64,000 nucleotides of DNA from an uncultured Candidatus Saccharibacteria bacterium (GCA_964510435.1 CAZEBU010000001.1:234503-298502); one strand, 5' to 3'. Shown: positions 6,216 to 46,914, counted from the stretch's first letter. The notes: generated from the letters alone by a model not told the origin. Numbers and translations are program-made.

Positions 6216-8042
6216 CTATTCCTTTTCGAAATCGAAGAGGCGGCTTCTGATGGCTACATATGAGGGTGCTCTAAGATTGAAGACCGTTTTAAAGGTTTGT
6301 CCGTCTATTTTAACTGTACCGTTATCGGTCTCTAATTCTACCTGTGAGGTATAACCGCCGTTACTGACATCTACACTGATGCTTTTGACCTTTTTGTAGC
6401 TCTTACCGTATTTATTGGCTTTGTCACGCATTTTGTCTAGTGAGTAAGGGTCTCCGCCCCAGCAGCTGGTAGTCACCGGCGTGATACGATCCTTTTCGCT
6501 GCCGGAGCCTTTTGTCCAGACTACCCAGGCATTTACGATATCCGCCATTTCTTCTTCGGTGAGCCAAGGATGGGATCTACCGCAGTTGCTATTGTCATTG
6601 TAGCTTTTGGTATACCAGGCTTTTCTAAACCAAGGGCTGCCGCCTTCTTTTTCATAAGCATCCTCAGGCCAGCACGAAGAGCCACCGCATTTTGTGTCCC
6701 AACCAACGTTATTAATATAACCTCCGGTAGTGGAGGAATACCATCCATAACCGGAAGCATCGGTGCTGCCGTCGATGATCTTGTTTTTTGTATCTTTGAC
6801 TGCGTCCTTCCATCTACCCGGGGGATCATCGCTTTTACTCTTTAGGAATACCTGACAGTTTTGTGTTGTACAAATACAGAGACCTTTTTTGGCAAACCTG
6901 TAGGCATAAGATCTGCCAGCCACCGCCTGTGCTTTCAAGGCGTCTGAATCCCAGCTGCTAGGCATCTCGGCCAAACCATAGAGGTATTTCTGGTAGTCCA
7001 TCTCGCCGTAGCCTTCCACGCAGATCTTGCTAGGAAAATCATCCTTTTCTTTTACATCTTCCTCATAATAAAACTCAATAATGTCTTTATAACCTTTACC
7101 CTTTTCCGCCCTGCCTCTAGCTCCATACTGACTCATTCCTTTATAGTGCGTGTACGCTCCGTAACTAAAGGCGGCAAAAGCAGGGTCAAAAGGAGGATCC
7201 GGGGTCTTAGCTTCGGAGGGTTCATATTCTCCCACACTACCGCTTTCCGTACCGTATTTTTGGTTTAAAATAGCTTGTTGTTTAGAGGAGAGCTCGGCGA
7301 TTTCCTGCTCCAGGTCAAAGAGTTCCTCTTCGTAATCTTCCTCTTCCTCTTCCAAGTTACTGAACTCATTTTGTGCCGAAGCTTTTTTACTATCTACATC
7401 AGCTTTTAGAGATAACAAACTGTTTTGTGTACCTTCCAGCTCGGATATGATAGTTTCCGCTTCCAGCCTGTCTGTTTCAAAGGTGTTGATCTCTGAATTC
7501 AACAAGTAGATCCATTGTAAAGCGTCGTCAGTGAGGGATTTATTAAATATGTAAGAGAAAGATGAATACTGGAATCCGGTGAGATTAGTACCAAAGGGAT
7601 TGAAGGCAAAAAATATTTCCAGGTCGCTCTTAAATCTTTTTTTGGAATAATTTCTGATAACTTTGTTTCTAAAATCAATCTTTTCTGCCAGCTTACCGCG
7701 GCGATCACTGAGGTTTTCGTTGATGATGTTTAGCTCTTCGCTGATAAAGTTAATTTCGCTTTGCAGCTCGTCAATTTGTGCTTGTGTCACATTTAGTTCC
7801 GAAAGGTACTGGTTTATGGTGGCTTCAATGTTGTCCATTTTGCCTCTAATATCGCCTAGCTTATTTGAGGTGGACTCGTATTTTTCTTGTTTGTCTTCGA
7901 TCTTATTGGCGTAGCAGTCTGCTCTGTCATCTAGATCTTGGATCTCCGAGCATCCCCCAACAACCGGTTTGGGTACAAGAGCCAGCAGGAAAGCCAGAGA
8001 TACTATGAGGAGAGATGTTTTAAACAGGTTCCTTGCGGGCAT
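6216..8042 (-). CDS. Secreted coiled-coil protein with C-terminal SpoIID/LytB-like domain (peptidoglycan remodelling)
   Basis: N-terminal signal peptide and a long heptad-rich coiled-coil region. C-terminal AQAVAGRSYAYRFAKKGLCICTTQNCQVF matches the SpoIID family motif (AQAVAARTYA...CDTTxCQVY). Confidence 0.6.
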   Translation of the reverse strand: MPARNLFKTSLLIVSLAFLLALVPKPVVGGCSEIQDLDDRADCYANKIEDKQEKYESTSNKLGDIRGKMDNIEATINQYLSELNVTQAQIDELQSEINFISEELNIINENLSDRRGKLAEKIDFRNKVIRNYSKKRFKSDLEIFFAFNPFGTNLTGFQYSSFSYIFNKSLTDDALQWIYLLNSEINTFETDRLEAETIISELEGTQNSLLSLKADVDSKKASAQNEFSNLEEEEEDYEEELFDLEQEIAELSSKQQAILNQKYGTESGSVGEYEPSEAKTPDPPFDPAFAAFSYGAYTHYKGMSQYGARGRAEKGKGYKDIIEFYYEEDVKEKDDFPSKICVEGYGEMDYQKYLYGLAEMPSSWDSDALKAQAVAGRSYAYRFAKKGLCICTTQNCQVFLKSKSDDPPGRWKDAVKDTKNKIIDGSTDASGYGWYSSTTGGYINNVGWDTKCGGSSCWPEDAYEKEGGSPWFRKAWYTKSYNDNSNCGRSHPWLTEEEMADIVNAWVVWTKGSGSEKDRITPVTTSCWGGDPYSLDKMRDKANKYGKSYKKVKSISVDVSNGGYTSQVELETDNGTVKIDGQTFKTVFNLRAPSYVAIRSRLFDFEKE

Positions 8043-8155: not shown

Positions 8156-8518
8156 ATGGTTAAAATCTTGCAAACCCTAGGATACTTTGTCTTTTCGCTG
8201 TTTGCATCCGCAGGGGTTGTTTACGCTGATGCGGAATCGGTACAGGAATTTATTGACAGCGTCGCTTTGGATGAGGCTGAGATAGCTGTAGGTATATATA
8301 ACTTCTTATTTCCTATTGGTTTGGCCGTAGGTTTTTTTGCCATAATCATGGCAGGCTACTCATACCTAACTAGCCAAGGACAACCGGATAAGGTAAAAGA
8401 AGCTAGCGAAAAATTAACCAGCGCTATACTTGGTATTATTTTTATAGCTCTATCTCTGGTCATCTTGCGGATCATTGTAGTTTCGTTATTGGGAGGCTCA
8501 TTACCCTTAGCTACGTAG
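8156..8518 (+). CDS. Small secreted two-helix hairpin protein, VirB2/TrbC-pilin-like (paralog 1 of 4)
   Basis: Signal peptide (..AGVVYA|DAES). Two hydrophobic helices separated by a short polar loop (AGYSYLTSQGQPDK...). Conserved motifs are shared with the next three ORFs. Confidence 0.5.
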   Translation: MVKILQTLGYFVFSLFASAGVVYADAESVQEFIDSVALDEAEIAVGIYNFLFPIGLAVGFFAIIMAGYSYLTSQGQPDKVKEASEKLTSAILGIIFIALSLVILRIIVVSLLGGSLPLAT

Positions 8519-8642
8519 TCATTACCAACCCATAACTTGAGATCCTACCGTTGTGTTGTCACTGGTGATTCTAAAGGTTATAATTAATTCATTACTTGGT
8601 CCGATTTACTTTTATTTTAAAGGAGGTGTAAGTTAACGAACT

Positions 8643-8996
8643 ATGTTATTACAAAAAGTGTATGCAGCAGGAACAGCTGTGAGTACTACCATTACCGACC
8701 CATTAACAAACTACACCAGCTTAGGTCAAGTCTTTAACTTTTTGCTCAATCTGTTTATTGGTATCGGTTGGGCCTTGGTTTTTGTCATGTTAGCTTTGGG
8801 TTTTGTACAGTACGTAATGTCACGAGGAGAGAAAACCGCTGTCGAGTCTGCCCAGAAATGGTTGACTTATGCCGTTATCGGTGGCGTTGGGTTGTTCTTT
8901 GTCTCTTTTGTGAGGAGGATAGTACCACAATTGTTAGGAGGTACTGCCGGTCCAGGAACTGGCCTTACAACAGGTGGAGACCTAACACCGTTCTAA
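8643..8996 (+). CDS. Small two-helix hairpin protein, VirB2/TrbC-pilin-like (paralog 2 of 4)
   Basis: RBS AAAGGAGG upstream. Core hairpin LGFVQYVMSRGEKTAVESAQKWLTYAVIGGVGLFFVSFVRRIVPQLLGG aligns with the other paralogs. Gly-rich C-terminal tail. Confidence 0.5.
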   Translation: MLLQKVYAAGTAVSTTITDPLTNYTSLGQVFNFLLNLFIGIGWALVFVMLALGFVQYVMSRGEKTAVESAQKWLTYAVIGGVGLFFVSFVRRIVPQLLGGTAGPGTGLTTGGDLTPF

Positions 8997-9049
8997 CGAG
9001 TATTGTTATTATTGTTACTGCAGTAATTACGAGATCTCAAAAAGGAAAA

Positions 9050-9077
9050 GCTCCAATGTTAACATTGGGGCTTTTTT
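9050..9077 (+). terminator. Rho-independent terminator after pilin-like paralog 2
   Basis: 9-bp stem GCTCCAATG/CATTGGGGC (one G-U pair) with a TTAA loop, followed by TTTTTTG. Confidence 0.55.
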
Positions 9078-9091
9078 GTTAAAATTATTTT

Positions 9092-9430
9092 ATGTTTGAT
9101 ACTCTACAAAGTATTTTTGGTTCGGTAGGCGCAGGTAGCCCAGGTAACAGCAAATATATTAGTTTTGCAGCTATGGCGGGTGCCGTCTTGAACTTTATGA
9201 TGGCCGTTGCCTTTGCGATCAGTATTTTAGCTGTGGCATACTCCGCTATCATGTACATTGTGAGCGGTGGAAATCCTGATAATACCAAGAAAGCTTGGAA
9301 TGCGTTTATATATGGAGTAGTTGGCGCTGCAGTTTCAGTAGGATTGTTTGCCTTGACCCGCATTGTTTTAAGTGGGTTTGGGGTTGAAGGTGTGCGAACT
9401 GATATTAATCAAATTATCCCAGGCTTTTAG
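9092..9430 (+). CDS. Small two-helix hairpin protein, VirB2/TrbC-pilin-like (paralog 3 of 4)
   Basis: Core VAYSAIMYIVSGGNPDNTKKAWNAFIYGVVGAAVSVGLFALTRIVLSGFG aligns with paralogs 1, 2 and 4. Confidence 0.5.
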   Translation: MFDTLQSIFGSVGAGSPGNSKYISFAAMAGAVLNFMMAVAFAISILAVAYSAIMYIVSGGNPDNTKKAWNAFIYGVVGAAVSVGLFALTRIVLSGFGVEGVRTDINQIIPGF

Positions 9431-9436
9431 AACAGG

Positions 9437-9907
9437 ATGAACACATTAAAGAAAAGTCTAATAATAGTATTTTTAATAACCGCTTCTTTGTTTGTGCTTA
9501 GTGATACAAATAAAGTGTACGCGCAATTTGGCGACTGCGATTTAGCTGGGGATACACAATTAGGTGTAACTGTTCCTAAACCCTCACAATTATTGTGCCC
9601 CTTCTACAGAATTATAAATTTCTTTTTCATTATTGTGGGCATTGTTTTTGCAGTTATGCTAGGTGTGGGAGCGATCAAGTTAGCCACCTCTTTAGGTGAT
9701 CCAAAGGCATTTCAGGGGGCCAACAGGACCTGGTTATACGCTGTTATTGGCGCGTTTGTGGCTGTGGGAGCGTATGCTGTTTTGAGGATTGTAAATAACG
9801 CGTTTGGTTTAGGTTTGTCTTTGGGAACAGGCCCCAGCAGCATTTATGACAGCATACAGACACAATGGGAAAATTTAATACGTAACACCTTCTTAATTTT
9901 TGAGTAA
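9437..9907 (+). CDS. Small secreted two-helix hairpin protein, VirB2/TrbC-pilin-like (paralog 4 of 4), with extra N- and C-terminal extensions
   Basis: Signal peptide (..TNKVYA|QFG). Core VGAIKLATSLGDPKAFQGANRTWLYAVIGAFVAVGAYAVLRIVNNAFG aligns with paralogs 1–3. Confidence 0.5.
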   Translation: MNTLKKSLIIVFLITASLFVLSDTNKVYAQFGDCDLAGDTQLGVTVPKPSQLLCPFYRIINFFFIIVGIVFAVMLGVGAIKLATSLGDPKAFQGANRTWLYAVIGAFVAVGAYAVLRIVNNAFGLGLSLGTGPSSIYDSIQTQWENLIRNTFLIFE

Positions 9908-18957: not shown

Positions 18958-19434
18958 GTGAGATATAATAACCCCATGCTGATACAGAAAAACCGCAAGG
19001 CTCTCTTTAACCACGAGATTCTCGAGAAATTTATGGCAGGAATTGAATTAAAGGGTTTTGAGGTCAAGGCAATAAAAGAAAATAAAGCCAGTTTTGAAGG
19101 TTCGTTTGTCAACATAGTGAAGGGCGAGGCCTTTGTACAAGGTATGCATATTGGCAAGTATTCGAAACAGAGCCAGGATTACTACGAACAAGAAGCACGC
19201 CGTCCTAGACGTTTGCTCTTAAATAAGCATGAGCTGAAAAAACTAAAAAAAGAAATTTCCGAAAAAGGTAAAACAGCGGTTCCATTGGCACTGTTATTAA
19301 AACGAGGCATGATCAAATTAGAGTTTGCGGTGGTTAAAGGTAGAAAAAAGCACCAGAAAAAACAATTACTGAAAAAGAAGCAGATAGAAATGGATCTAAA
19401 GAAAGAGATCAAACAGCAGTTTGAGTTGCCGTAA
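18958..19434 (+). CDS. smpB: SsrA-binding protein SmpB (true start possibly the second ATG at 18976)
   Basis: Sequence matches the SmpB family (NRKA...GIELKGFEVKAIK...LLLNKHELKKL). A basic C-terminal tail is present. Confidence 0.85.
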   Translation: MRYNNPMLIQKNRKALFNHEILEKFMAGIELKGFEVKAIKENKASFEGSFVNIVKGEAFVQGMHIGKYSKQSQDYYEQEARRPRRLLLNKHELKKLKKEISEKGKTAVPLALLLKRGMIKLEFAVVKGRKKHQKKQLLKKKQIEMDLKKEIKQQFELP

Positions 19435-19509
19435 TAGTATTTTAAGCATATTGAAAATTCGTACGAAGTGAGTTATAATACAGACCCATAGTGTTATGGG
19501 TGTAATTAC

Positions 19510-19902
19510 GGGGATGCGTAGGCATTGATTGGAAGAAGTAATTACGAGAGCAAGCCGAAGTGATAGATTTTCGTAAAAAACTATCAAAACATAAGTGCTG
19601 ATGAATACGCATATCAGCCAGCATACGCTTACGCTTAAGTGTATGTGTCAGAACCCTTTGGGTATATCCCAAATCGTTTTGAGGTCCTGTGCTCACTAGC
19701 CTGAGGGGAGTGCAAGGGCGTTATAAAATCAGGCACCGCAGCTTAAGCCTGACCAGTTTAGGTTGTTTGCGAAAGGAAGGTCTAGGGAAAGGTTAAGGGT
19801 TTGCGGTTGCCCGACTTTTACCGAATAAATTTCCGCTAAGCTTGTATTCTTTTGTATTTTATAGCTTTCAAGACGGGGGTTCGAATCCCCCCATCTCCAC
19901 CA
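19510..19902 (+). ncRNA. ssrA: tmRNA (ssrA), one-piece form
   Basis: 5' GGGGAUG pairs with the 3' acceptor strand CAUCUCC, with one G-U pair. The 3' end has the tRNA-like T-arm GGGGGTTCGAATCCCCC followed by A and CCA. It lies immediately downstream of smpB. An in-frame tag-like ORF ends at TAA 19636..19638 (…ADEYAYQPAYAYA*). The 5' boundary is approximate. Confidence 0.65.
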
Positions 19903-19904
19903 GA

Positions 19905-19940
19905 AAAAAGCAAATGTGTTTAATGTACGTTTGCTTTTTT
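19905..19940. terminator. Weak A/U-rich hairpin between tmRNA 3' end and the convergent membrane-protein gene; possible bidirectional terminator
   Basis: Stem AAAAAGCAAA / TTTGCTTTTT with a 15-nt loop, flanked by T runs on both strands. The stem has low GC. Confidence 0.25.
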
Positions 19941-21134
19941 TACAGCTAGTTTCAAGATCCAAAACGCTAAAATAAGATAAACGAGGGTAGTTCCGAACTG
20001 AAGGTACAAAAATCCCGACCAGGACAACAAAAACATCAAAATCAGGAAGCTGTAGAGCCTTCTATTATCGGATTTTCTGTAGAAATCACTGCTAACTAAG
20101 TACAAGGGCAAAAGAAAAACTACTATGTCAACCGGCATAGTGTGCAGGTTGATCAAAGGGGTGAAAAAAACTATGGCTGCAAAGGCCAAGTCTTTATTAA
20201 TGTATTCGTTTTTCTTAGCAAGCGTAAGTAAAACTGCTCCATAAAGAAGTAAGTTTACTATAACTGTTGTAACCTTAAGATAAGTACTGTTGCTTATTAA
20301 TAACGATAAGGACGAGCTGAGGTTATAGTTGAGTAATACGTTAGTTCCGTAACTTACCGACTCGCTGAGAAAGAGAAACTTTGGGTAGGTAGTTAAAAAC
20401 CCAATTCCATATAAACCAATATTTAACACCACCAGAACCGCCAGCGAAGAAACTATTCCAATCAACAAGCTCTTCACTTTCTTATCCTTCGAAAAAAGAA
20501 CCACCAACATAGGAATAATGATAAGGAACTGAGGTTTTAAAAGTACGAACCCTACAACTAAACCTGCTAACAGCATTCGTCTATTTTTAATAAAATAATA
20601 TGTTAAGGAAATGATCAACAGGATCAATAGAGAGATTTGGCCTGCGCTGACGTTACTCCAAATAGGTATATACCAGGGAAGTGCTAACAGGAGGTAAAAC
20701 CAGATTTTTTTATCGACAGTTACCATTTTGTAGTATACTGCCAGAATTAAGACGACCAGAATTATATTAACAAGAGCCAAAGGGTAAAAAGCTTCCGTGT
20801 AACTCATTTCGGCTAACGGACGCACTAGGAGCCCCGTTATGGGCGGCGCTCTGAAGGCTAGTATTCCCTTCATTTTTTCTAACCCGGCAAGCTCACTCTG
20901 AGTTTCTACTTGGGCATCCCAATCGTAGAGTTTTTTTATGCCCTCATCTTTTATTATCTTGGCACCCGTATAGTACATGAGAAAATCCGGAGGGTTATTA
21001 TCTTCGATCCAGTTCCTTCCTACTCGCACCTTTATCTTATTTGTCATGGATTCCAAAAGGAAAAGTGAAGCAAATATTAAAAATGCCGTAAGGAGGAGAG
21101 TTTTTATTTTTCTAGTACTTGGAGCATTAATCAT
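19920..21134 (-). CDS. Polytopic integral membrane protein, possible GT-C-type glycosyltransferase (DUF2029-like)
   Basis: 404 aa with at least ten predicted TM helices. No soluble catalytic domain was recognised. Confidence 0.4.
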   Translation of the reverse strand: MINAPSTRKIKTLLLTAFLIFASLFLLESMTNKIKVRVGRNWIEDNNPPDFLMYYTGAKIIKDEGIKKLYDWDAQVETQSELAGLEKMKGILAFRAPPITGLLVRPLAEMSYTEAFYPLALVNIILVVLILAVYYKMVTVDKKIWFYLLLALPWYIPIWSNVSAGQISLLILLIISLTYYFIKNRRMLLAGLVVGFVLLKPQFLIIIPMLVVLFSKDKKVKSLLIGIVSSLAVLVVLNIGLYGIGFLTTYPKFLFLSESVSYGTNVLLNYNLSSSLSLLISNSTYLKVTTVIVNLLLYGAVLLTLAKKNEYINKDLAFAAIVFFTPLINLHTMPVDIVVFLLPLYLVSSDFYRKSDNRRLYSFLILMFLLSWSGFLYLQFGTTLVYLILAFWILKLAVKKANVH

Positions 21135-21315
21135 TTAGGTGTTTTCATTATCGCATTTGTGTTTGGGGAAATTAAGTCCGGTTTGACTAGAATCTAGGTA
21201 TTAGTAAGGAGGTGAGTTTAACTATATTATAATATAGGTCTACACACCGGTATACTAGAGGTTTGTATACTAGTTAAGGCCGCAGCCCAAGTAGATAAAT
21301 AATTGTGGATAACCT

Positions 21316-21993
21316 ATGGAAAACCTAGTAAACACATTTTTTCCGGCAAAATGCTTTAACTGCGGGGAAAATTACGGAGATATTTGTCGTGCATGCCTAA
21401 ACGAGTGCTTAATTGCCAGAAATTTCTATTGTATAGTCTGTGACAAACCTGTGGTAAAGGGTAAAACTCATGTAAAGTGTGAAGGCAACTTTACCCCAAG
21501 AAGTATCTTTAGTGCCTTTGAGTACTCAGGCATAGTGAGAAAATGCATAAAAACAGCAAAATATCGATCCAAAACCTTTGCGCCACTAAAGAAATTAGCT
21601 CTAGAGGCCGCTAAAATGGCTTCTACCTGCAATTTACAGTACCAAGGATACACAGTAACCTCCATTCCTCTCAGCCGAAAAAGAAACAAAGAGAGAGGGT
21701 TTAACCAGGCAGGATTAATTTTATCAGCCATAGCTAGGCAGTATGATCTATCCCATAGGGAGTCTATTTTAGCTAGAAAAAAGCAGACCAAAGCTCAGTA
21801 CGGCCAGGCAAGAAAAGAGAGGTTTGAGAATTTGCGAGGAGCGTTTGTTTGTAATAGAAATATTAAAGGTCAGAAAATACTCTTAGTAGATGATATTTGC
21901 ACAACGGGAGCCACTTTGCTGGAGGCGTCTAAGGTTTTACGCAGTGCAGAAGCCCAGGAAGTGCAGTGTTTTACCTTGGCTAAAAAGTTTTAG
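21316..21993 (+). CDS. comFC: ComF/ComFC-like phosphoribosyltransferase-domain protein with N-terminal zinc finger
   Basis: N-terminal CFNCG...CRAC...CIVC cysteine cluster. C-terminal PRTase motif ILLVDDICTTGATL. Confidence 0.7.
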   Translation: MENLVNTFFPAKCFNCGENYGDICRACLNECLIARNFYCIVCDKPVVKGKTHVKCEGNFTPRSIFSAFEYSGIVRKCIKTAKYRSKTFAPLKKLALEAAKMASTCNLQYQGYTVTSIPLSRKRNKERGFNQAGLILSAIARQYDLSHRESILARKKQTKAQYGQARKERFENLRGAFVCNRNIKGQKILLVDDICTTGATLLEASKVLRSAEAQEVQCFTLAKKF

Positions 21994-22063
21994 TTTTTTC
22001 CCGCAATCTCATTAATCACGTAGTGATGTATCGCACTTAGTGCGATATAATATAGCGGTAATT

Positions 22064-22150
22064 GGAGGGTTGGCAGAGTGGTAATGCAGCGGCTTGCTAA
22101 GCCGTGACCGTTAATACGGTCCGTGGGTTCGAATCCCGCACCCTCCGCCA
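22064..22150 (+). tRNA. tRNA-Ser (anticodon GCT), class II with long variable arm
   Basis: Acceptor GGAGGGT/ACCCTCC, anticodon loop CTTGCTAAG, T-arm GTGGGTTCGAATCCCGC, encoded CCA. Confidence 0.85.
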
Positions 22151-22201
22151 TGATCACAGCCAAGTGTGTTTTATTTACGAATAAGCTATACTTAACCTAA
22201 T

Positions 22202-22795
22202 ATGAAGGTAACCGACCTAACCGATTTAATAGGTGTGACAAACACAAAAAAGGATCAGCCGGTAGCGCCGGAAGAAGCGGAGTTTAGACGGGAAAACCTT
22301 GGATCTAAATCGATCTACTTATCTTGGGAAGCCAAACCTAGCGCTCCAACTGCCTCTATTGATCCCAGATTTAAAAAGACCTTCTTAGTCATTGGTGCTG
22401 TCGTGGGCTTGGTTCTTATGGTTATGGGAGAAGTGTTTTTGCTCCTGGTGATTGCCAGCTTGGTTTTTATTACCTACGTATTATCAAATAACCCTTTGGA
22501 AAGTTTTAAGTACGAATTAAGCAGTCACGGACTGAGTGTGCATGGGAATCATTACTATTGGGACGAAATGGAAAGGTTTTTCTTTACTAAGCATTTTGGT
22601 AGCGAAAATCTAGCTGTTGATCTAAAAGAAGGATTACCTGCCAGGCTTATTATTGCTTTTAACCACAACGATAAGGAAAAGATCACCGAAAGCATGAATA
22701 AGCATCTTCCTTATTTGGAGGAGGAGCCCTTGAATTTTATGGATAAAGCGTATACAGGTATTTTAGGCAAGTTTGATTTCCAAAAGAAAAAATAG
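22202..22795 (+). CDS. Hypothetical protein with a central TM hairpin
   Basis: 197 aa. Hydrophobic segment FLVIGAVVGLVLMVMGEVFLLLVIASLVFITYVL. Confidence 0.45.
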   Translation: MKVTDLTDLIGVTNTKKDQPVAPEEAEFRRENLGSKSIYLSWEAKPSAPTASIDPRFKKTFLVIGAVVGLVLMVMGEVFLLLVIASLVFITYVLSNNPLESFKYELSSHGLSVHGNHYYWDEMERFFFTKHFGSENLAVDLKEGLPARLIIAFNHNDKEKITESMNKHLPYLEEEPLNFMDKAYTGILGKFDFQKKK

Positions 22796-22814
22796 TAGTC
22801 TCCCCATATATAAT

Positions 22815-22890
22815 GCACCCGTAGTTCAGTGGATAGAACGCAGCGTTGCGGACGCTGAGGTCGGGGGTTCAAATCCCTCCGGGTGCGCCA
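22815..22890 (+). tRNA. tRNA-Arg (anticodon read as GCG)
   Basis: Cloverleaf GCACCCG-TA-GTTCAGTGGATAGAAC-G-CAGCG-TTGCGGA-CGCTG-AGGTC-GGGGGTTCAAATCCCTC-CGGGTGC-G-CCA. A GCG anticodon is unusual for bacteria; ACG is more common. Confidence 0.75.
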
Positions 22891-22912
22891 AAGTTGTTAC
22901 ACAGGCTTATTT

Positions 22913-22989
22913 GGGCCGTTAGCTCAGTCGGCTAGAGCGTCGCATTCGCATTGCGGAGGTCGGGGGTTCGATTCCCCCACGGTCCACCA
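22913..22989 (+). tRNA. tRNA-Ala (anticodon CGC)
   Basis: Acceptor GGGCCGT with the G3:U70 identity pair. Anticodon loop TTCGCAT, T-arm GGGGGTTCGATTCCCCC, encoded CCA. Confidence 0.8.
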
Positions 22990-22997
22990 AGAATTTT

Positions 22998-23089
22998 GGA
23001 GGGGTGCGAGAGTGGTTTAATCGGCTGGTCTCGAAAACCAAGCGCTTGCGAGAGCAGGCACGAGGGTTCGAATCCCTCCCCCTCCGCCA
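22998..23089 (+). tRNA. tRNA-Ser (anticodon CGA), class II
   Basis: Acceptor GGAGGGG/CCCCTCC, anticodon loop CTCGAAA, long variable arm, T-arm GAGGGTTCGAATCCCTC, encoded CCA. Confidence 0.8.
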
Positions 23090-23221
23090 TGAAAAGTAGA
23101 TATTGTCTTGAGCTAACCACCTAGCTGTAAAAACCTTTACCTTCAGAGAACCCCATAGTATAATATTACACAACATTTCAAAATAACCGAGAAGAATAAA
23201 ACAAATCAAGAAGGAGGCGAC

Positions 23222-23680
23222 ATGCCTGTGTTCCCGCAATTTATTAGAAGGAGCGAGAGACTCTACGCGATTCTCGAGGAGTTTGTCGACAGTTTCTTAG
23301 GCAGCACTGTCGAGGAGATTCAGGAGGCACTGGACTATTACGCTGGCGAAGACTTTACAGGGGAGACGCCTAAGAAACCGGTTTACATACATGCTGAGAG
23401 CGTTTCCTACGATGAGGTGGAGGGTACAGTCACTGTGTCAGTCGATGGTCAGGAGTATGCCTCAAGGGACTTGGCACATGTCAAGCTGGATCTTTTTTAC
23501 GAAGACAAGCATATCACTAGATCCAGAAAATCCAGACTGTCTCTTTGGCATCGTAAGGGGGTGGAAGACAAGTATGAAGGTGAGGTAAGCTTCTACTACT
23601 GCGACGCGCAAGATGATGCTGGAAGGTTCATGCGAATCTGGTTCTCTGAAGGCGAAGCACCTCACTCCTTGATATCCTGA
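23222..23680 (+). CDS. Hypothetical protein (higher-GC islet gene 1)
   Basis: RBS AAGGAGG at -9. Own rho-independent terminator downstream. GC content is visibly higher than in the flanking genes. Confidence 0.5.
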   Translation: MPVFPQFIRRSERLYAILEEFVDSFLGSTVEEIQEALDYYAGEDFTGETPKKPVYIHAESVSYDEVEGTVTVSVDGQEYASRDLAHVKLDLFYEDKHITRSRKSRLSLWHRKGVEDKYEGEVSFYYCDAQDDAGRFMRIWFSEGEAPHSLIS

Positions 23681-23686
23681 AACAAA

Positions 23687-23727
23687 CCCCTCATTGGTAG
23701 ATTCTATTTGCCATGAGGGGCTTTTTA
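23687..23727 (+). terminator. Rho-independent terminator
   Basis: Stem CCCCTCAT/ATGAGGGG with a 18-nt loop, followed by CTTTTTAT. Confidence 0.5.
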
Positions 23728-23799
23728 TATTTGACCAGTGTTAAATCCTATAGTACAATTACCCAATCCTACAAATACCATCAACAAGAAAAGGAGAGG

Positions 23800-24201
23800 A
23801 TGATGGGTATGCAGTATTCGCGTACGTTTTCGGAGGAAGTTCGTCAGGCTCTTGATGAGCACGATCAGTTGGAAGCCGAGAAGGAAGCCGGTTTGGTGGC
23901 CGAAACGGCAGATTTGGACAGTCTGTATGAGGAGGTTTGGTGGCAAGAGTTTGTCAACCATTTCTATTGTGAAGACATCGAAGCTCTGAGGCGATCTGAA
24001 GCACAAGAGATCGAAGAGGCTTGGGAAGATCCTATGGCCCACGGATTCTACGATGACGATTCTTGGTACTGGGATCCGGTGGATTCGGTGGATTTGGACT
24101 CAGAACAACCAACTAGGTTCTCCAGGAGCATTATGGTGCGCAATGCGAAGAGGCTTTTTGAGGCTGTCGAACGCCGCCTTCGCACTCGTTTTATACAGTG
24201 A
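23800..24201 (+). CDS. Hypothetical acidic protein (higher-GC islet gene 2); the ORF track extends to 23713 but the RBS supports a start near 23800
   Basis: RBS AAGGAGAGG precedes ATGATGGGTATG. Trp/Asp/Glu-rich sequence. Own terminator downstream. Confidence 0.5.
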   Translation: MMGMQYSRTFSEEVRQALDEHDQLEAEKEAGLVAETADLDSLYEEVWWQEFVNHFYCEDIEALRRSEAQEIEEAWEDPMAHGFYDDDSWYWDPVDSVDLDSEQPTRFSRSIMVRNAKRLFEAVERRLRTRFIQ

Positions 24202-24240
24202 GCTAATTGAGCGTTCATCGCTCTTAGCTAACTCCTCTCG

Positions 24241-24286
24241 ACCCCCGCTATTTCTGGTTAGTGCCATTAGCGGGGGTTCTTTTTTC
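24241..24286 (+). terminator. Rho-independent terminator
   Basis: Stem CCCCCGCTA/TAGCGGGGG followed by TTCTTTTTTC. Confidence 0.6.
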
Positions 24287-24342
24287 GTGTTAGAATAGCC
24301 AACAAATAAATCATCCAAAGAAAAAATAGAAAGGAAGTTGAT

Positions 24343-25002
24343 ATGACCATCACATCGGCAAGAATCGCGCTTGATTTAGGTGATGATGTACGTGTTTCAC
24401 CGCCGGATTGGCCAAACAGCCAACTTAGTGTTAAGCCCGGAGATCTTTCAATGATCGCACCAAGCGGGGAAGGCATCTATGGCTATGAGGATAAGGAGGA
24501 GAGAAATTTCCTTCTGAGCGCACCCAGATTTGAGGCTTGCGGCGGAAGTTTTTATTTTGTCAACGGTGTTTCAAAAGCTGATTTTGAGGCTCTCATGAGG
24601 GTTTTGAGAATTGAACAACGTTTTGGAAAATCAGAGAAACCCTCCAAGGATCACGCTGTATTCGTCTATGAGTCAGCAGAGCCTGGCGAAGATGGGTATC
24701 TTGCCCAGTTGAGGATAGTCTCCAGGTTTGGACTTCAATTTATGTTTGGAGCACTCGCTGAAGGTGAGTACGAAAAGTTTCCTGAGCAAAAATTAACTAT
24801 GACGGAAACTTTCTGGTTGTTCATGGAACACGAACGCAATCGCTGGGGCACCGAGTTTTGGCACGACGGCAGAGGCCTGCGCGGTCTCTTTGGAGGTGAT
24901 GGAGACTTTGCACGTGAGGAGCTATCCTTTGGCTTCATGGTGGAGAACGACTACCACCAGATCTATCGTATCTGGTCTCGTGCGTGGCTAGTCACCAAGT
25001 AA
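24343..25002 (+). CDS. Hypothetical protein (higher-GC islet gene 3)
   Basis: RBS AAAGGAAG. 219 aa with no recognisable motifs. Own terminator downstream. Confidence 0.5.
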   Translation: MTITSARIALDLGDDVRVSPPDWPNSQLSVKPGDLSMIAPSGEGIYGYEDKEERNFLLSAPRFEACGGSFYFVNGVSKADFEALMRVLRIEQRFGKSEKPSKDHAVFVYESAEPGEDGYLAQLRIVSRFGLQFMFGALAEGEYEKFPEQKLTMTETFWLFMEHERNRWGTEFWHDGRGLRGLFGGDGDFAREELSFGFMVENDYHQIYRIWSRAWLVTK

Positions 25003-25038
25003 GCTGATTGAGTGCTCATTACTTTCAGCTAAGCATCG

Positions 25039-25088
25039 CCCTCGTTACATTTAGTAATATTCATTTGTAACGGGGGTTCTTTTTTTCC
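25039..25088 (+). terminator. Rho-independent terminator
   Basis: Stem CCCTCGTTACA/TGTAACGGGGG followed by TTCTTTTTTTCC. Confidence 0.6.
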
Positions 25089-25106
25089 AAAACTGATATT
25101 ATTTAC

Positions 25107-26633
25107 TTGATGAAGACAAAATATCTACCATTTTTAATCAGCCTAGCGCTGCTTTTTTATTTTGGTCTATTTTTTGCACAAAAAATTAATCTTACCACTG
25201 CAGATTTGGGACGACATATTATCAATGGCAAAGTTTTTTTAACTCAAGGCAAAGTGATCTCCACCAATTTTTACTCATATACACAACCGGATTTTCCTAC
25301 CGTAACTCATCACTGGTTTAGTGGGGTAGTTTTCTATCTTGTCGAAAAAGCTGCTGGCTTCACCGGATTATCAATTTTCTATGTCCTGATAAGCGGTTTA
25401 ACTGCCTTGCTTTTCTTAAAAACAGCGCAGGAAAGATCCAACTTCGGTACAGCCCTATTTTTTACCATCTTGGTGATCCCTCTATTGGCAGATAGAAAAG
25501 AAATCAGACCGGAAGGATTTAGTTACCTGTTCATGGGGCTTTATTACTACATACTGATTTTATACAAAAAAGGGAAGATCAGTTTCAGACTGCTTCTGCC
25601 TGCAATCCTAATTACACAGCTACTCTGGGTTAATATGCATCTGTTTTTCGTTATGGGAATTTTCATGGTGGCTGTTTTTACCGCTAAGGAATTTATCGAA
25701 AAGCATTTTTACGGGAAGAAAAGTTACTATAAAAAGCTAGGATTGCTGCTGGTGTTGATGACGCTGGTTAGTTTAATCAATCCTTACGGAATCCATGGTT
25801 TGCTTGAACCTTTTAATATCCTAAAAGAGTACGGTTACATGATCATTGAAAATCAAACCATCTTATTTATGCAGAAAAGAGCCCCTAGTTTTAAGTATTT
25901 TTACATTGAAGCCTTGTCCATAGTTTTTTTGATCACGGCAATACAAAGTATATTAGTTAAGAGGTGGAGAAGCTATTTTATTTCCGGTCTGTTAACACTT
26001 ACCTTCTTAGTTTTGGCTTTTCGAGCTATAAGAGGAATACCTCTATTTGCATTATTTTTCATACCCTTTATGTCCCAGTATTTCTACACGAATTTTAAAA
26101 AACAGAGTGAGAAGTTAGTGGTTTTTTCTGTGGTTGCTTTCATATTAACCCTTATTCCCGGGCACTTTTTTTCCGTTAGTCAGCCTGGGTTTGGTTTTGG
26201 GATAATCCCTGGGGTAAATGATTCGGCGGAATTTGTTAAGCAAAACAAAATAGGTGGGCCCATCTTTAACAACTACGACATTGGCGGCTACCTAATCTAC
26301 CACTTTAACGACCAAGAAAAAGTCTTTGTAGATAACAGGCCTGAATCATACAGTGTGGAGTTTTTTAAAGACTTGTATGTTCCTAGCCAGGAAAACGAAG
26401 AAAAGTGGCAGGAAACCCTGGAAACTTATGATTTTAACGTCATCTACTTTTACCGCCGTGATGCAACTCCGTGGGCTCAGCCGTTTCTCATAGAGAGAAT
26501 CAAGGATGACACATGGGTGCCCGTATTCGTCGATAATTATGTTTTAATTTTAGTTAGAAATAATGAAAAAAATAAGGGTATAATAGAATCCCACGAGATT
26601 CCCAAGAGTGTCTTTGTAGTAACACCATCATGA
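25107..26633 (+). CDS. Polytopic membrane glycosyltransferase, GT-C fold (ArnT/PMT-like)
   Basis: 508 aa with at least ten TM helices. N-terminal region is typical of GT-C mannosyltransferase-like proteins. Its stop overlaps the start of the next gene. Confidence 0.5.
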   Translation: MMKTKYLPFLISLALLFYFGLFFAQKINLTTADLGRHIINGKVFLTQGKVISTNFYSYTQPDFPTVTHHWFSGVVFYLVEKAAGFTGLSIFYVLISGLTALLFLKTAQERSNFGTALFFTILVIPLLADRKEIRPEGFSYLFMGLYYYILILYKKGKISFRLLLPAILITQLLWVNMHLFFVMGIFMVAVFTAKEFIEKHFYGKKSYYKKLGLLLVLMTLVSLINPYGIHGLLEPFNILKEYGYMIIENQTILFMQKRAPSFKYFYIEALSIVFLITAIQSILVKRWRSYFISGLLTLTFLVLAFRAIRGIPLFALFFIPFMSQYFYTNFKKQSEKLVVFSVVAFILTLIPGHFFSVSQPGFGFGIIPGVNDSAEFVKQNKIGGPIFNNYDIGGYLIYHFNDQEKVFVDNRPESYSVEFFKDLYVPSQENEEKWQETLETYDFNVIYFYRRDATPWAQPFLIERIKDDTWVPVFVDNYVLILVRNNEKNKGIIESHEIPKSVFVVTPS

Positions 26634-27709
26634 AAATAATTGTTTCAGCTGGAGGACAGGGTACGAAGATCTGGCCTTTTAGCACTAAAAAACAACCTAA
26701 GCAGTTTCAGAAGATCATCGGTCAGGAATCCCTTTTTACTCATAATGTGAAAATGCTTCTAAATAAATATCGGCCGGAGGATATTTTTATTTCCACCAAG
26801 AAGATGTACAAAAAGCTTGTTAAAGAGCAGGCGCCCAAGATTCCTGAGGAGAATCTGCTCATTGAACCTGATATTGCTAAGGGCAGGGGACCTGCGGAAG
26901 GCTTTGTATTTTTGCTGCTGTCGTTGAAACACTCTACTGAGGTATTTACCATATTGCAAGCCGACTGCATGTACCTGCCGGCAAACAAGTATTTAGCCAC
27001 TCTGGAATTTATGGAAAAAATTGTCAAAAGAGACCAAAAGTTTATCTCCGGAGGTCTAGTGCCCACCTTTCCGGTAATTGGCGTGGATTATCTTTCCTTG
27101 GGAGAAAAGGTGGAGTCAGACGACTGGATGGATATTTACAAAGTAAAGAAGTTTTTAGGTAGAAAAAAGGATTATGAAGAAACAGCTAAGCTTATAAAAG
27201 AAAAAAACGTGGTCATGCACACTAATCTTAACACCTGGTTTCCCGATTTGATGTTGCAAGCCTACGGAAAATACAGACCGGACTGGTTCGAAAAACTAAT
27301 GGAAATTAAAGAGGTGCTTGAAAACAAGGGTTCCGAAAAAGAAATTGAGGAAATATTTTCCCAAATGGAACCAGGATCTACGGAAGAAGTTACGCGCTAT
27401 GTCTTTGAAGAGGGATATACTGTTACCTATCCTTTCAAATGGTTTGATATTGGCACTTGGGACTCAGTTTATAAGTACCTAGCGCGGAAAAACCAGGTTT
27501 ACAAAGAAGGAAACGTTGTGGCGTTGGAATCTTCGGGAACATTGGTAAAAAGTACAGATCCTAAGAAGCTAATTGCCGTACTGGGTTTGGAGGACATGGT
27601 TATAGTGGATACCGAGGAGGTGTTATTTATTGCCCCCAGGGATAAGGTAGGAAATATCAAAGATGTGCATCAGAAACTTATTGATAAAGGTTTGGAAAAA
27701 TTTTTATAG
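26630..27709 (+). CDS. Sugar-phosphate nucleotidyltransferase (mannose-1-phosphate guanylyltransferase-like)
   Basis: N-terminal MKIIVSAGGQGTKIWPFS matches the NTP-transferase G-rich motif (LAGGxGTRLWPLS). Confidence 0.6.
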   Translation: MKIIVSAGGQGTKIWPFSTKKQPKQFQKIIGQESLFTHNVKMLLNKYRPEDIFISTKKMYKKLVKEQAPKIPEENLLIEPDIAKGRGPAEGFVFLLLSLKHSTEVFTILQADCMYLPANKYLATLEFMEKIVKRDQKFISGGLVPTFPVIGVDYLSLGEKVESDDWMDIYKVKKFLGRKKDYEETAKLIKEKNVVMHTNLNTWFPDLMLQAYGKYRPDWFEKLMEIKEVLENKGSEKEIEEIFSQMEPGSTEEVTRYVFEEGYTVTYPFKWFDIGTWDSVYKYLARKNQVYKEGNVVALESSGTLVKSTDPKKLIAVLGLEDMVIVDTEEVLFIAPRDKVGNIKDVHQKLIDKGLEKFL

Positions 27710-27762
27710 ACAAGAGTGCCTATGCTAAAATCACCAAGTAAAATCACCAAGCCTTACTATTA

Positions 27763-27852
27763 GGAGGGATGCGAGAGCGGCTGAATCGGCTCGCCTGGAA
27801 AGCGACGCGCTCCGAAAGGGGCACGGGGGTTCGAATCCCCCTCCCTCCGCCA
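27763..27852 (+). tRNA. tRNA-Ser (anticodon GGA), class II
   Basis: Acceptor GGAGGGA/TCCCTCC, anticodon loop CTGGAAA, long variable arm, T-arm GGGGGTTCGAATCCCCC, encoded CCA. Confidence 0.8.
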
Positions 27853-27854
27853 CA

Positions 27855-28523
27855 CTAGGGCACCAGTAAATAAAAGATCACATACTGCAGGGGATAAAAA
27901 ACATAAAATAAATATTTTACTCTCGGACCGGGTTTGCCATTGTAAAAAGCCACAAAGAATAGGGAGATAAGTGCAAACGGTTGTATGATAGAAACCATAC
28001 TAAACGCAACTTGCTTAGTTAGTACCAAAATGGGAAGCAATCCAAAATAAATAGCGGATTGCGATAAGAGCATCATTTTAATATCTTCGAAATAGATATA
28101 AAAAGAAATAATGGATAAAACACCCAACATACCATAATCACTATCAATTAGCTGGGCTGTCGCTGAGTAGACCAGAACAGCGATAATTTTTACTAGATTA
28201 CTTTTCCCATCCCTGATCACTTTTATGCCTAGCAGTCCTAAAAACAAGGTAAAAAAAATGTTCAGCTGAGCAAACGAAACATCAATTGATCTAAAGGCAA
28301 TAGTGTAGGGAATTTGCGAGAGCAGAGAAAAGATAAAAAGTCTTTTTAAATAGGCATTGATGTCTTTTGTGTGCTTAGCGCCGTTGGCTATCATCCAGGC
28401 AAAAAGGGGAAAGGAAAGTCTTCCCAGTGCCCTAAGGAAAACTGCTTGAGGAAAAATGAAAACACCAATGTGGTCAATAGCCATAGCTAAAATAGCAATA
28501 ATTTTAATAGTGAAGGTATTCAT
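27855..28523 (-). CDS. TraX-family membrane protein (F-pilin acetylase family)
   Basis: N-terminal IKIIAILAMAIDHIGVF matches the TraX signature (LKxIAxxxMxIDHIG). Multi-pass membrane protein. Confidence 0.6.
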   Translation of the reverse strand: MNTFTIKIIAILAMAIDHIGVFIFPQAVFLRALGRLSFPLFAWMIANGAKHTKDINAYLKRLFIFSLLSQIPYTIAFRSIDVSFAQLNIFFTLFLGLLGIKVIRDGKSNLVKIIAVLVYSATAQLIDSDYGMLGVLSIISFYIYFEDIKMMLLSQSAIYFGLLPILVLTKQVAFSMVSIIQPFALISLFFVAFYNGKPGPRVKYLFYVFYPLQYVIFYLLVP

Positions 28524-45801: not shown

Positions 45802-46914
45802 CTACTCCTCGACCCTGAACTCAGCATCAAGATCCTTCATGGTTTTCTTGAAAGCGCTGTACTCAAGTTCGTCGAAAGGGAGCATAGCTGCGCCCACAAA
45901 GCCCTGCTCACGCATGTAGTCTCCCTTGCGCTGTGCTTTGAGTCTAGTGGCATCCCAAACCGGATTCCCGAACATGTCTACGGGATTGGAAAGTATGCCA
46001 GCTTGGTTAACGGAGTAGGCTAAGCAGGAGACAATGGGTAGGCAATACGAGCCGGTTACCGGTGTACTTATAGCCACAGGCATAACAGGCATGTGGTGGC
46101 TTCCTCGGGCATCGCCTGCTGTGTAATGAGCAGTTGTCCAAGGGCTGACCACTTCTTCGGGAGCAGGGAAGAACTTTTGCACCCGAACAATAGCCACGGG
46201 GTCATCTTTTCCCTTGTACTCCCCGGCAATACTATGAAGTCTGTCGGTTGAGATGGAAACTACCTGTTGTTTTGGGTAGGTGTTGGAGTGGATAGCCTTG
46301 ATGCCAAATTTGTTCTCATCTCTAAGAAGGAAAGCCAGCTCCACGGCCTTGACCTTTCCGTTGAGGACAATCACTCTATCCTTTCCGACATGGTCCATGT
46401 CAATTACCGTAAAGGTGAATCCGGAGAGCATATTCGGGAGCATTAACCCCGCGCAGTACATGGGGTTGGTGAAGACATTCCAGAATGGAAAGTTGAAGAC
46501 ACCAGGACCACACTTATCGGCCGCAAATACTAAGAAGGGTTCGGATTCCCTTTCCTCGGCCTTTTCATCAAAAGTGATCTCGGCGACACCAGGCCCGGCA
46601 CCACGCACATTTCCTGAGGGAGCGTCGACAAGAAGATCCTGACCAGCACCGTATAGACCATCTTTCTTTGCCTCATCCGTGGCTGCTTCAAAAATCCTCC
46701 AGGCTAGCTGGTGAATGTCTTCGTTTAGATCACCATATCTGTGGGACATCAGAAGGCACAGATCATCACCGGTGAACGTCACCCGATGATCGATGAACTC
46801 TGACATCTGCGCATCCTCAAGCATCTCAGAAGCTACTTCGAGCATTCTGTCAGAGGGGCGGGTATGGCCTCCAATGCTACCCACGTCGGCCTTGATGCAA
46901 CTAATTGTAAGCAT
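45802..46914 (-). CDS. Bifunctional fructose-1,6-bisphosphate aldolase/phosphatase (class V FBPase, archaeal-type)
   Basis: N-terminal ISCIKADVGSIGGH motif characteristic of this family. Visibly higher GC than the neighbouring genes. Confidence 0.8.
   Translation of the reverse strand: MLTISCIKADVGSIGGHTRPSDRMLEVASEMLEDAQMSEFIDHRVTFTGDDLCLLMSHRYGDLNEDIHQLAWRIFEAATDEAKKDGLYGAGQDLLVDAPSGNVRGAGPGVAEITFDEKAEERESEPFLVFAADKCGPGVFNFPFWNVFTNPMYCAGLMLPNMLSGFTFTVIDMDHVGKDRVIVLNGKVKAVELAFLLRDENKFGIKAIHSNTYPKQQVVSISTDRLHSIAGEYKGKDDPVAIVRVQKFFPAPEEVVSPWTTAHYTAGDARGSHHMPVMPVAISTPVTGSYCLPIVSCLAYSVNQAGILSNPVDMFGNPVWDATRLKAQRKGDYMREQGFVGAAMLPFDELEYSAFKKTMKDLDAEFRVEE

Follow-up and report, generated by a model that had tools for sequence, protein, structure and literature searches.

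Directly downstream of tandem tRNA-Arg, tRNA-Ala, and tRNA-Ser genes in an uncultured Candidatus Saccharibacteria bacterium stand three small open reading frames (ORFs), and the question that this locus raises is how they came to be there. They are part of a 64,000-nucleotide stretch (GCA_964510435.1 CAZEBU010000001.1:234503-298502), hereafter called the window, and a first-pass annotation of its sequence had taken them for a cassette acquired horizontally at a tRNA hotspot. We confirmed the three ORFs and named them genes A (152 aa), B (132 aa), and C (219 aa); for gene B, in-frame starts at 23800 (133 aa) and 23809 (130 aa) are alternatives to 23803, which the database gene calls use. The data covered were the 64-kb window of the host genome, whose nearest relatives carry labels of candidate division WWE3 (Patescibacteria), and 10-kb flanks for relatives; comparison contigs and loci are denoted by L-numbers. 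The best explanation, which we regard as fairly probable, is that 23090-25088 is a lineage-specific, horizontally acquired islet of ~2.0 kb, in which units devoid of an integrase were inserted at a hotspot flanking a tRNA gene. More than one cassette is probably involved, because C, which in 11 other genomes comes with neither A nor B, is bracketed here by an 85-nt direct repeat of its own.

The islet fills a variable slot 3′ of tRNA-Ser(CGA)

Relatives were found by a genome search anchored on the DnaG gene, 3.6 kb downstream, and a metagenome search with an alignment of the membrane protein encoded beyond the islet yielded 80 more loci, giving 88 related loci in all. These relatives are labelled candidate division WWE3 or Saccharibacteria, and they are 50-73% identical to the window in DnaG and up to 92% in RpoD. 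The gene order of L013 equals that of the window on both sides, with a 1210-aa protein, SmpB, transfer-messenger RNA (tmRNA), ComF, tRNA-Ser, a 197-aa gene, and tRNA-Arg/Ala/Ser(CGA) ahead of the slot, and the membrane protein, an NTP-transferase, tRNA-Ser(GGA), DnaG, and RpoD beyond it. When the window was aligned with L013 and L019, similarity was gone directly past the terminal CCGCCA of tRNA-Ser, and the islet begins 1 nt 3′ of this tRNA, which ends at 23089. Similarity resumes at AAAACTGATATTAT, which is kept in L013, L017, and L019 directly upstream of the orthologous membrane-protein gene. These two edges delimit the variable segment as 23090-25088.

The contents of this slot turn over. 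It measures 422 bp and holds one unrelated 92-aa Cys-rich ORF in L013, it holds four unrelated minus-strand ORFs within 3.2 kb in L019, and its contents differ again in L040, L034, L035, L036, and L058. The region upstream of the membrane-protein gene differs in nearly every relative, and an occupant in common was found only in L040 and L034. Coding sequence of A, B, or C was detected in none of the 88 related loci (loci, not whole genomes), and no fragment was retained. The presence and absence comparison that had been proposed for related genomes therefore gave a plain outcome: the flanks are kept, but not one of the syntenic relatives found has A, B, or C. As judged from these comparative data, the 3′ flanks of tRNA and tmRNA genes are the main sites of insertion and deletion in the WWE3-like lineage.

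A trivial explanation would be an assembly or binning artefact, in which a GC-richer fragment of another organism was joined to the contig. The genome is metagenome-derived and the G+C (GC) content changes abruptly at both edges, dropping in 500-nt bins from 0.48 to 0.37 at 25001. However, the window sits in a 349-kb contig, and four other contigs (three from NCBI metagenome assemblies and one from a Logan run) span the flanking genes and the tRNAs and reach into A, B, and C. Window positions 20633-24725 recur in these four contigs with a sole mismatch, at 21795 in L002, which is upstream of the islet; the left junction, A, and B are base-identical in all of them. A chimera of this one assembly is therefore an unlikely source of the left junction, and we consider an artefact extremely improbable. 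Because these same-population contigs are identical, no estimate of the ratio of nonsynonymous to synonymous substitution rates is possible.

Genes A and B are atypical in composition and codon usage

The three genes had been described as GC-richer than their neighbors, and computation bore this out. Their GC was 0.490 (A), 0.476 (B), and 0.482 (C) compared with 0.414 +/- 0.038 for 61 window ORFs, ranking them third to fifth among the ~60 real window ORFs. The GC at third codon positions (GC3) was 0.556, 0.521, and 0.482, respectively, versus 0.418 +/- 0.066, and the third-position G/(G+A) of gene B was 0.632 versus 0.375 +/- 0.078. For the whole slot, GC was 0.461 versus 0.408, an elevation found in the window alone and not in the slots of its relatives. 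Codon usage was scored as synonymous choice conditional on the amino-acid sequence, with 54 background window genes. A (z = -3.6) and B (z = -3.1) fell beyond the range of these genes (minimum -2.8), whereas C (z = -2.1) remained within the background tail, so that atypical codon usage holds for two of the three genes. Thus, neither uniform composition nor syntenic conservation, the two observations that the first-pass annotation had held to speak against acquisition, was found.

High expression was considered as a cause of the high GC3 and was ruled out. Ribosomal-protein genes have a GC3 below the host means (L25 in the window, 0.359; S16 in L005, 0.323), and high expression therefore does not account for the composition of A, B, and C.

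Only two window genes are more codon-atypical than A and B, namely, 45802-46914 (-) and 50010-50825 (+), which have a GC of 0.51-0.52 and z of ~ -4.2. The former encodes a class V (archaeal-type) fructose-1,6-bisphosphatase and the latter an acidic 271-aa protein without a family match; each has its own strong terminator, and both are possibly further acquired genes.

Each gene appears to be a separate transcription unit

Strong Shine-Dalgarno (SD) sequences had been noted on all three genes. This applies to A (GAAGGAGG) and B (AAAGGAGAGG), whereas that of C (GAAAGGAAG) is weaker; all are purine-rich. A sigma-70-like consensus scan placed promoter-like sites ahead of A and B (Table 1), the promoter regions of which are similar, and an extended -10-like element ahead of C, which the two-hexamer scan did not report, was read by eye. 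The individual hairpin and T-run terminators that the annotation had described were verified by folding: the folding energies of the 3′ regions were -20.9 kcal/mol for A (z = -4.7), -39.2 kcal/mol for B (z = -6.2), and -28.0 kcal/mol for C (z = -4.5), and 0 of 200 shuffles folded as well as the native regions. A simple terminator scan had missed these terminators because their loops are longer than the scan allows. As read from the sequence, the islet would not be an operon: A, B, and C would be transcribed autonomously, with a promoter, an SD, and a terminator for each.

Elsewhere in the window, 52701-53009 (-) is a GC-rich 102-aa membrane-protein gene with a strong SD and a terminator ending CGGCGGTTCTTTTTT. 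In promoter and leader (TTTACC-17-TATAAT, then TACCCAAATCC...), this gene is a close match to gene B (TACAATTACCCAATCC). In addition, an exact 13-nt direct repeat, AAAGAAAAAATAG, occurs at 22783-22795, at the stop codon of the 197-aa gene before tRNA-Arg, and at 24317-24329, before the SD of C; this A-rich repeat is probably due to chance. Farther upstream, at 8156-9907, four small genes in tandem match PF18895, the pilin family of type IV secretion systems.

Proteins A and B are orphans, and the three genes do not look like one system

The absence of recognizable motifs, as first reported, was confirmed. Searches of Pfam, PHROGs, NCBIfam, and PADLOC gave no match for A, B, or C at E <= 0.1 except one of B to MTase_II (E = 0.033), which was taken as noise, and the best hit of a PDB profile search reached only E = 0.14. 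In a word-indexed search of 5.8 billion proteins, A and B matched only themselves. When A was compared by full HMMER with 1.84 billion representatives, the only hits were weak, repeat-like, and uninformative ones between residues 86-124 and giant proteins, and the single-sequence AlphaFold2 (AF2) model of A was unusable, with a predicted local distance difference test (pLDDT) score of 35. None of the three products is predicted to have a membrane-spanning segment, and IMG/VR contained no relatives of any of them. One product had been called very acidic; this is B, with 33 Asp and Glu residues in 133 aa and an isoelectric point (pI) of 4.33, and the other two are acidic as well (Table 1). A and B may be dispensable cargo.

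A, B, and C could in principle form one functional system, of a defense, anti-defense, or toxin-antitoxin-like kind, acquired as a single cassette. They are adjacent and co-oriented with similar GC, the promoter regions of A and B are alike, and all products are acidic. In particular, B is small and strongly acidic, as are anti-restriction DNA mimics of the Ocr/ArdA type, but no mobile-element genes lie near B, and it has neither a PHROG match nor IMG/VR relatives. Against such a system, each gene has a separate promoter and terminator, C is without A or B in 11 of 11 other loci and is bracketed separately by a direct repeat, and the three proteins are not significantly related to one another by hhalign or BLASTP. 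Alignments of short segments of A and B to residues 68-95 of C (E = 0.33 and 0.05, respectively) were treated as chance. The anti-defense role that had been suggested gained no support, as there was no PADLOC or PHROG match, no relative in IMG/VR, no C homologue in INPHARED or PLSDB, and no fold match. The islet is thus probably not one functional system, and acquisition of such a system in a single step is improbable.

C belongs to a conserved Patescibacteria family that recurs beside tRNA genes

Gene C, unlike A and B, has homologues. A protein search gave 197 matches at E <= 0.01; among the 120 matches listed, the homologues are ~50-66% identical and nearly all ~205-220 aa long, and where the source names the organism, the hosts are Patescibacteria (Sungbacteria, Nomurabacteria, and "Patescibacteria group"). 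An alignment of 67 members has 21 invariant positions, including an FGGDG loop and, toward the C terminus, WSRAWL within the motif RIWSRAWLVTK; residues Q122, R124, E192, and E201 do not vary either. The AF2 model built from the family alignment is reasonably confident from residue 68 on (predicted template modeling score 0.81, mean pLDDT 78) and depicts an alpha/beta domain ending in a long beta-hairpin, to which fold comparison gave no structural match. No family member was found in IMG/VR, INPHARED phages, PLSDB plasmids, or BFVD. The conservation of the family implies that C is under selection for some activity.

Eleven further C loci were compared (L005, L007, L009, L011, L030, L031, L032/33, and L114-L117). 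All 11 have mutually unrelated contexts, such as SMC/rpsP, GatB/IF2, MreB/Mur ligase, and S20/aminoacyl-tRNA synthetase, and homologues of A or B were found near C in none of them. Nor did all-against-all BLASTP and phmmer comparison of the flanking ORFs of the C loci fetched to that point reveal conserved neighbors, although one unrelated GC-rich small ORF often partners C. C exceeded the host ORFs in GC in seven of the eight loci scored, and L114, L115, and L117, which were scored against overall flank GC, likewise had a GC-richer C. The difference was large in L032/L033 (GC3 of 0.58 versus a host ORF mean of 0.30-0.35) and in L115 (GC of 0.49 versus 0.34). Part of the GC excess of C is thus a family trait, seen in most hosts. 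Acquisition at a tRNA hotspot, as first proposed, is upheld by the atypical composition, the absence from relatives, and the turnover of the slot, whereas its single cassette is not, as C is distributed independently.

Co-oriented tRNAs lie upstream of many C homologues (Table 1). With the window excluded, 5 of 11 C loci have one within 600 nt, compared with 51 of 929 background ORFs from the same set of loci (5.5%; binomial p = 1.7e-4), and 7 of 11 have one within 2.1 kb, compared with 10% of the background (p = 2.5e-5). The tRNAs beside C are of Ser, Arg, Trp, Leu, and Gly identity. The contig L007, which is labelled Sungbacteria, has 17 nt of the 3′ end of tRNA-Ser(CGA) directly repeated 165 nt past the tRNA (4138-4407); downstream of this repeat, the contig carries the C homologue together with a methyltransferase gene and an ORF of 103 aa.

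Such adjacency could also be expected if C were a tRNA-linked housekeeping factor, placed there by co-regulation or by read-through of strong tRNA promoters rather than by mobility. The adjacency to co-oriented tRNAs of many identities is significant, sequence conservation is high, including the invariant C-terminal motif, C often lies among housekeeping genes, and it is absent from the viral and plasmid collections. However, C homologues in most loci have their own promoter-like sites and SD, C is compositionally foreign in most hosts, its occurrence is patchy, it was not found in the 88 WWE3-like loci (not whole genomes), and direct repeats flank it in three loci, one of them including a tRNA 3′ end. 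On balance, a housekeeping role as the reason for its position is unlikely.

Direct repeats bracket C in three loci

In the window, the ~85 nt following B and the ~85 nt following C are similar (local alignment z = 6.6). The two modules have an identical two-hairpin architecture, in which the first hairpin (AGCTRATTGAGYG...) starts at the last base of the stop codon and the second is a terminator. All seven differences between the 31-nt first hairpins of the two modules are transitions, and two base pairs are compensated on both sides, suggesting that hairpin pairing has been maintained. The module was not found after C homologues elsewhere, and it is therefore local sequence duplicated around C rather than part of the C gene; gene A is without the first hairpin.

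Two other loci have repeats of their own. In L031, ~104 nt of intergenic sequence is duplicated on either side of C (7724-7827 and 8654-8756; z = 31.7); the duplicated sequence has a core of 44 nt (93% identity between the copies) and also includes a terminator hairpin and a promoter-like stretch. In L011 (3902-6738), 35-45-nt direct repeats that start with the 3′ end of tRNA-Gly(TCC) (ACCCGCTC) bracket a 1.7-kb unit of an XRE-type helix-turn-helix (HTH) gene and the C homologue. The layout is tandem: tRNA-Gly, a first unit abutting the tRNA, a repeat, the HTH gene with C, and a repeat.

Recombination genes are present near both of these C homologues. Upstream of C in L031, at 1-8 kb, are genes for a 1062-aa helicase-nuclease, an HTH_17 protein, and a large serine recombinase; the last is 6 kb from C, with no demonstrated link to it. 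Just past the unit in L011 lie rve integrase genes, likewise without a demonstrated link to the unit, and a HicA toxin gene.

The modules of the window also recall an integron-like array, in which B and C would be cassettes each ending in an attC-like hairpin. As in integron cassettes, consecutive unrelated single-gene units are each followed by a similar structured 3′ element, and the pairing of its hairpin is kept through compensatory transitions. Unlike in integrons, the 64-kb window yielded neither a tyrosine recombinase nor IntI, and no RYYYAAC or GTTRRRY core of an attC site was seen by eye in 24199-24290 or 25000-25092. Moreover, the genes are preceded by promoters of their own, most of the 3′ element is a canonical terminator, A is without the first hairpin, and C homologues elsewhere are not followed by the module. 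An integron array is very unlikely.

We favor, instead, stepwise insertion at the tRNA 3′ flank. One unit would have brought the orphans A and B, and a second, single-gene unit of ~0.8 kb would have brought C, its insertion duplicating the ~85-nt 3′ region of B. Ordinary transposition does not account for a local duplication this long (tens of nucleotides), whereas single-crossover integration of a circular intermediate with homology to the target, or site-specific recombination of the attachment-site (att) type, would. The insertion machinery, which is not encoded in the islet, may have acted in trans or have since been lost; it could have been an integrase, or the host's homologous recombination acting on a circular intermediate. 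C itself would move between genomes.

Scars at the same tRNA in relatives

If islets are inserted at tRNA-Ser(CGA), repeats of its 3′ end might mark them, and the first-pass annotation had proposed looking for one downstream. We searched the window with the last 16, 25, and 45 nt of tRNA-Ser(CGA), allowing mismatches, and for exact sub-words of at least 9 nt; only genuine tRNA-Ser genes matched, so that the proposed att repeat is missing from the window itself. Several relatives have one. In L019, an 18-19-nt repeat of the tRNA-Ser 3′ end lies 147 nt past the tRNA, within a degenerate tRNA 3′ half (z = 10.8), and L013 and L040 have repeats of 11 and 10 nt, respectively, both in an 85-nt segment common to those two loci. 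These repeats at the same tRNA indicate that the flank of tRNA-Ser(CGA) has been used for integration in the lineage.

The A and B unit has no clear right-hand att site. Between the module after B and the pseudo-tRNA-Ser scar of L019 there is similarity, including a shared 12-mer (TGAGCGTTCATC); the alignment has z = 5.3, and its score was not attained in any of 500 shuffles. This likeness is only a lead, because it was noticed post hoc and comparison of the modules with the window's own tRNA 3′ half was not significant.

Gain weighed against differential loss

Several points weigh against the acquisition of the islet by insertion. Nowhere in the slot of the window are 9 nt or more of the tRNA-Ser 3′ end repeated, and integrase, recombinase, and transposase domains are absent from the ~59 ORFs of the 64-kb window. 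The tRNA 3′ half and the modules after B and C are not significantly alike (p ~ 0.18), and the match of module B to the L019 scar was one of ~11 comparisons. Flanking repeats were found in only three of the 12 C loci (the window, L031, and L011). Across loci, no k-mers or terminal inverted repeats are shared around C; DNA similarity among the C loci stops at the coding sequence, so that no common element ends are defined. The nearest C homologue among the matches listed is 66% identical, and the acquisition of C is therefore not recent and its donor not named. The GC3 of C in the window is merely one standard deviation above the mean, and part of its GC excess derives from amino-acid composition (GC of 0.555 and 0.409 at codon positions 1 and 2, respectively). 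Finally, gain versus differential loss is not formally polarized without a phylogeny.

According to the latter alternative, A, B, and C would be ancestral and have been lost or replaced in the sampled relatives, with their GC resulting from amino-acid composition or selection. The codon-position pattern of C accords with this, as does the distance of the known relatives, and losses do occur at nearby tRNA flanks, as for TraX, which is present in L014 and L015 and absent from L013, L017, and L019. On the other hand, A and B are without a homologue in 5.8 billion proteins, and A found none among 1.84 billion representatives. The synonymous codon usage of both genes is the most atypical after the two other outliers, the slot occupant differs across relatives with no A, B, or C fragment kept, and C lies elsewhere in unrelated contexts with a GC3 far above its host (0.58 versus 0.30 in L032). 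We therefore regard differential loss as unlikely and retain insertion at the tRNA flank as the better explanation.

Features of the locus and its surroundings

The coordinates of the islet, its signals, and the flanking genes are given in Table 1, together with the tRNAs upstream of C homologues. Over 19000-28500, Rfam at E <= 1 identified only the tRNAs, the tmRNA, and antisense tRNA artefacts, and the 3′ hairpins of the islet were unmatched.

Table 1. Features of the islet, its flanks, and the tRNAs beside C homologues (window coordinates; L-numbers denote other loci)
Feature	Position	Strand	Remarks
tmRNA	19510-19902		
tRNA-Ser(GCT)	22064-22150		Upstream of the three-tRNA cluster
tRNA-Arg(GCG)	22815-22890	+	First of the three-tRNA cluster; ARAGORN; Rfam tRNA, 69.3 bits; syntenic in L013
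tRNA-Ala(CGC)	22913-22989	+	ARAGORN, Rfam; syntenic in L013, L019, L040
tRNA-Ser(CGA)	22998-23089	+	ARAGORN, Rfam; 3′ end is the left edge of the variable slot
Promoter-like site of A	23136-23164	+	TTTACC-17-TATAAT; sigma-70-like consensus scan, 10/12 matches
Gene A	23222-23680	+	ORF, 152 aa; acidic orphan, pI 4.73
Terminator of A	23687-23732	+	15-bp-class GC-rich hairpin and T-run; fold -20.9 kcal/mol, z = -4.74
Promoter-like site of B	23731-23759	+	TTGACC-17-TACAAT; sigma-70-like consensus scan
Gene B	23803-24201	+	ORF, 132 aa; very acidic orphan, pI 4.33, basic C-terminal tail
3′ module after B (direct-repeat copy 1)	24201-24285	+	11-bp bulged hairpin 24201-24229, terminator hairpin 24240-24278, T-run
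Extended -10-like element ahead of C	24288-24296	+	TGTTAGAAT; read by eye
Gene C	24343-25002	+	ORF, 219 aa; pI 4.98; member of conserved Patescibacteria family
3′ module after C (direct-repeat copy 2)	25002-25085	+	Hairpin 25002-25030, terminator 25038-25077, T-run
Right slot edge	25089-25102	+	AAAACTGATATTAT; -10-like element of the downstream membrane-protein gene
Membrane-protein gene	25107-26633		508 aa; downstream of the slot
tRNA-Ser(GGA)	27763-27852		
tRNA-Ser(GGA) of L114			Upstream, co-oriented; 167 nt to C
tRNA-Trp of L030			Upstream, co-oriented; 197 nt to C
tRNA-Arg(GCG) of L115			Upstream, co-oriented; 223 nt to C
Six-tRNA cluster of L116			Upstream, co-oriented; 405 nt to C
tRNA-Arg(CCT) of L032			Upstream, co-oriented; 559 nt to C
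tRNA-Ser(CGA) of L007			Upstream, co-oriented; 1.8 kb to C
tRNA-Gly of L011			Upstream, co-oriented; 2.0 kb to C

The membrane-protein gene beyond the right edge has an extended -10-like element, TGATATTAT, only ~7 nt ahead of its TTG/ATG start and no SD (25089-25110), and the spacing from this element to the start is equal in L013, L017, and L019. The short spacing and the missing SD suggest that its mRNA is leaderless. In L017, the 1.6 kb upstream of the membrane-protein orthologue (1-1615) contain no ORF of at least 60 aa and no tRNA and may be non-coding or decayed. In L015 (2590-7575), a GT87 gene stands between two paralogous genes for the 508-aa membrane protein, whose products share 43% and 49-51% identity with the window protein.

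Two further window genes that differ from L013 end close to RNA genes, and both have ordinary GC. A GT87 glycosyltransferase gene (19920-21134, -) ends 18 nt past the tmRNA, and a TraX-family gene (27855-28523, -) ends 3 nt past tRNA-Ser(GGA); since TraX is present in L014 and L015, the latter difference looks like a loss in L013. The five tRNAs of L016 (3935-6555), a single-cell genome, are in nearly the window order with the Ala/Ser(CGA) pair swapped, and ARAGORN places all five on the strand opposite to the flanking protein genes.

Significance and relation to known systems

The islet itself is a routine example of genes gained at a hotspot beside a tRNA; small acquired islets at tRNA flanks are known. 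Patescibacteria genomes are tiny, and to our knowledge few mobile elements have been recognized in them; recurrent single-gene insertion of the C kind could help to show how these genomes exchange genes. Full-text literature searches turned up nothing specific on tRNA-flank islets in Patescibacteria. Furthermore, C is a strongly conserved protein without a Pfam or NCBIfam model and may be worth following up.

A bolder possibility is a kind of minimal mobile cassette of Patescibacteria that has not been described before and has a C-family gene at its core; it would perhaps be self-mobilizing. A single gene of ~0.65 kb with its own expression signals would insert by tRNA genes or in the 3′ untranslated region of a neighbor, leaving long target duplications (35-105 nt) with no recognizable integrase. 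Either the C protein would be a new insertion enzyme, or a trans-acting system for recombination at tRNA flanks would exist in these reduced genomes, and the bulged hairpin at the stop codons of B and C might serve as a tRNA-minihelix-like site of recombination or processing. We hold this to be a speculative and improbable view. As seen at 12 loci, the integrase-less, repeat-bracketed single-gene C unit recurring by tRNA genes is at most a variant of acquired tRNA-flank islets.

Among known systems, the islet resembles tRNA-associated islands in lying directly 3′ of a tRNA, in its atypical composition and codon usage, in its absence from syntenic relatives, and in the variable cargo of the slot. 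The tRNA 3′-end repeats of L019, L013, L040, and L007 point the same way, as does the L011 repeat, which surrounds a C-containing unit. It differs from them in its size of only 2 kb, in having no integrase and no recognizable tRNA-derived att repeat in the window, and in that its genes are individually insulated transcription units. The last trait is shared with prophage morons, which likewise have their own promoter and terminator, deviate in GC, and are set between unrelated genes; unlike for morons, no phage genes flank the islet, and the C family is absent from IMG/VR, INPHARED, and BFVD.

Work on integrative and conjugative elements of Streptococcus has described cis-mobilizable elements (CIMEs), integrase-less elements that accrete in tandem at one att site. 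C units differ from CIMEs in being far smaller (0.8-1.7 kb), in that their repeats are local sequence that differs between loci and not a shared att core, and in that no cognate integrase-bearing element was identified in the 64-kb window or the 10-kb flanks of relatives. They may, like CIMEs, be units bounded by direct repeats and without recombination genes, and in L011 the unit stands in tandem beside a primary site. By analogy, the layout of the window, with the A and B unit abutting the tRNA and C beyond it, may be the same as this tandem.

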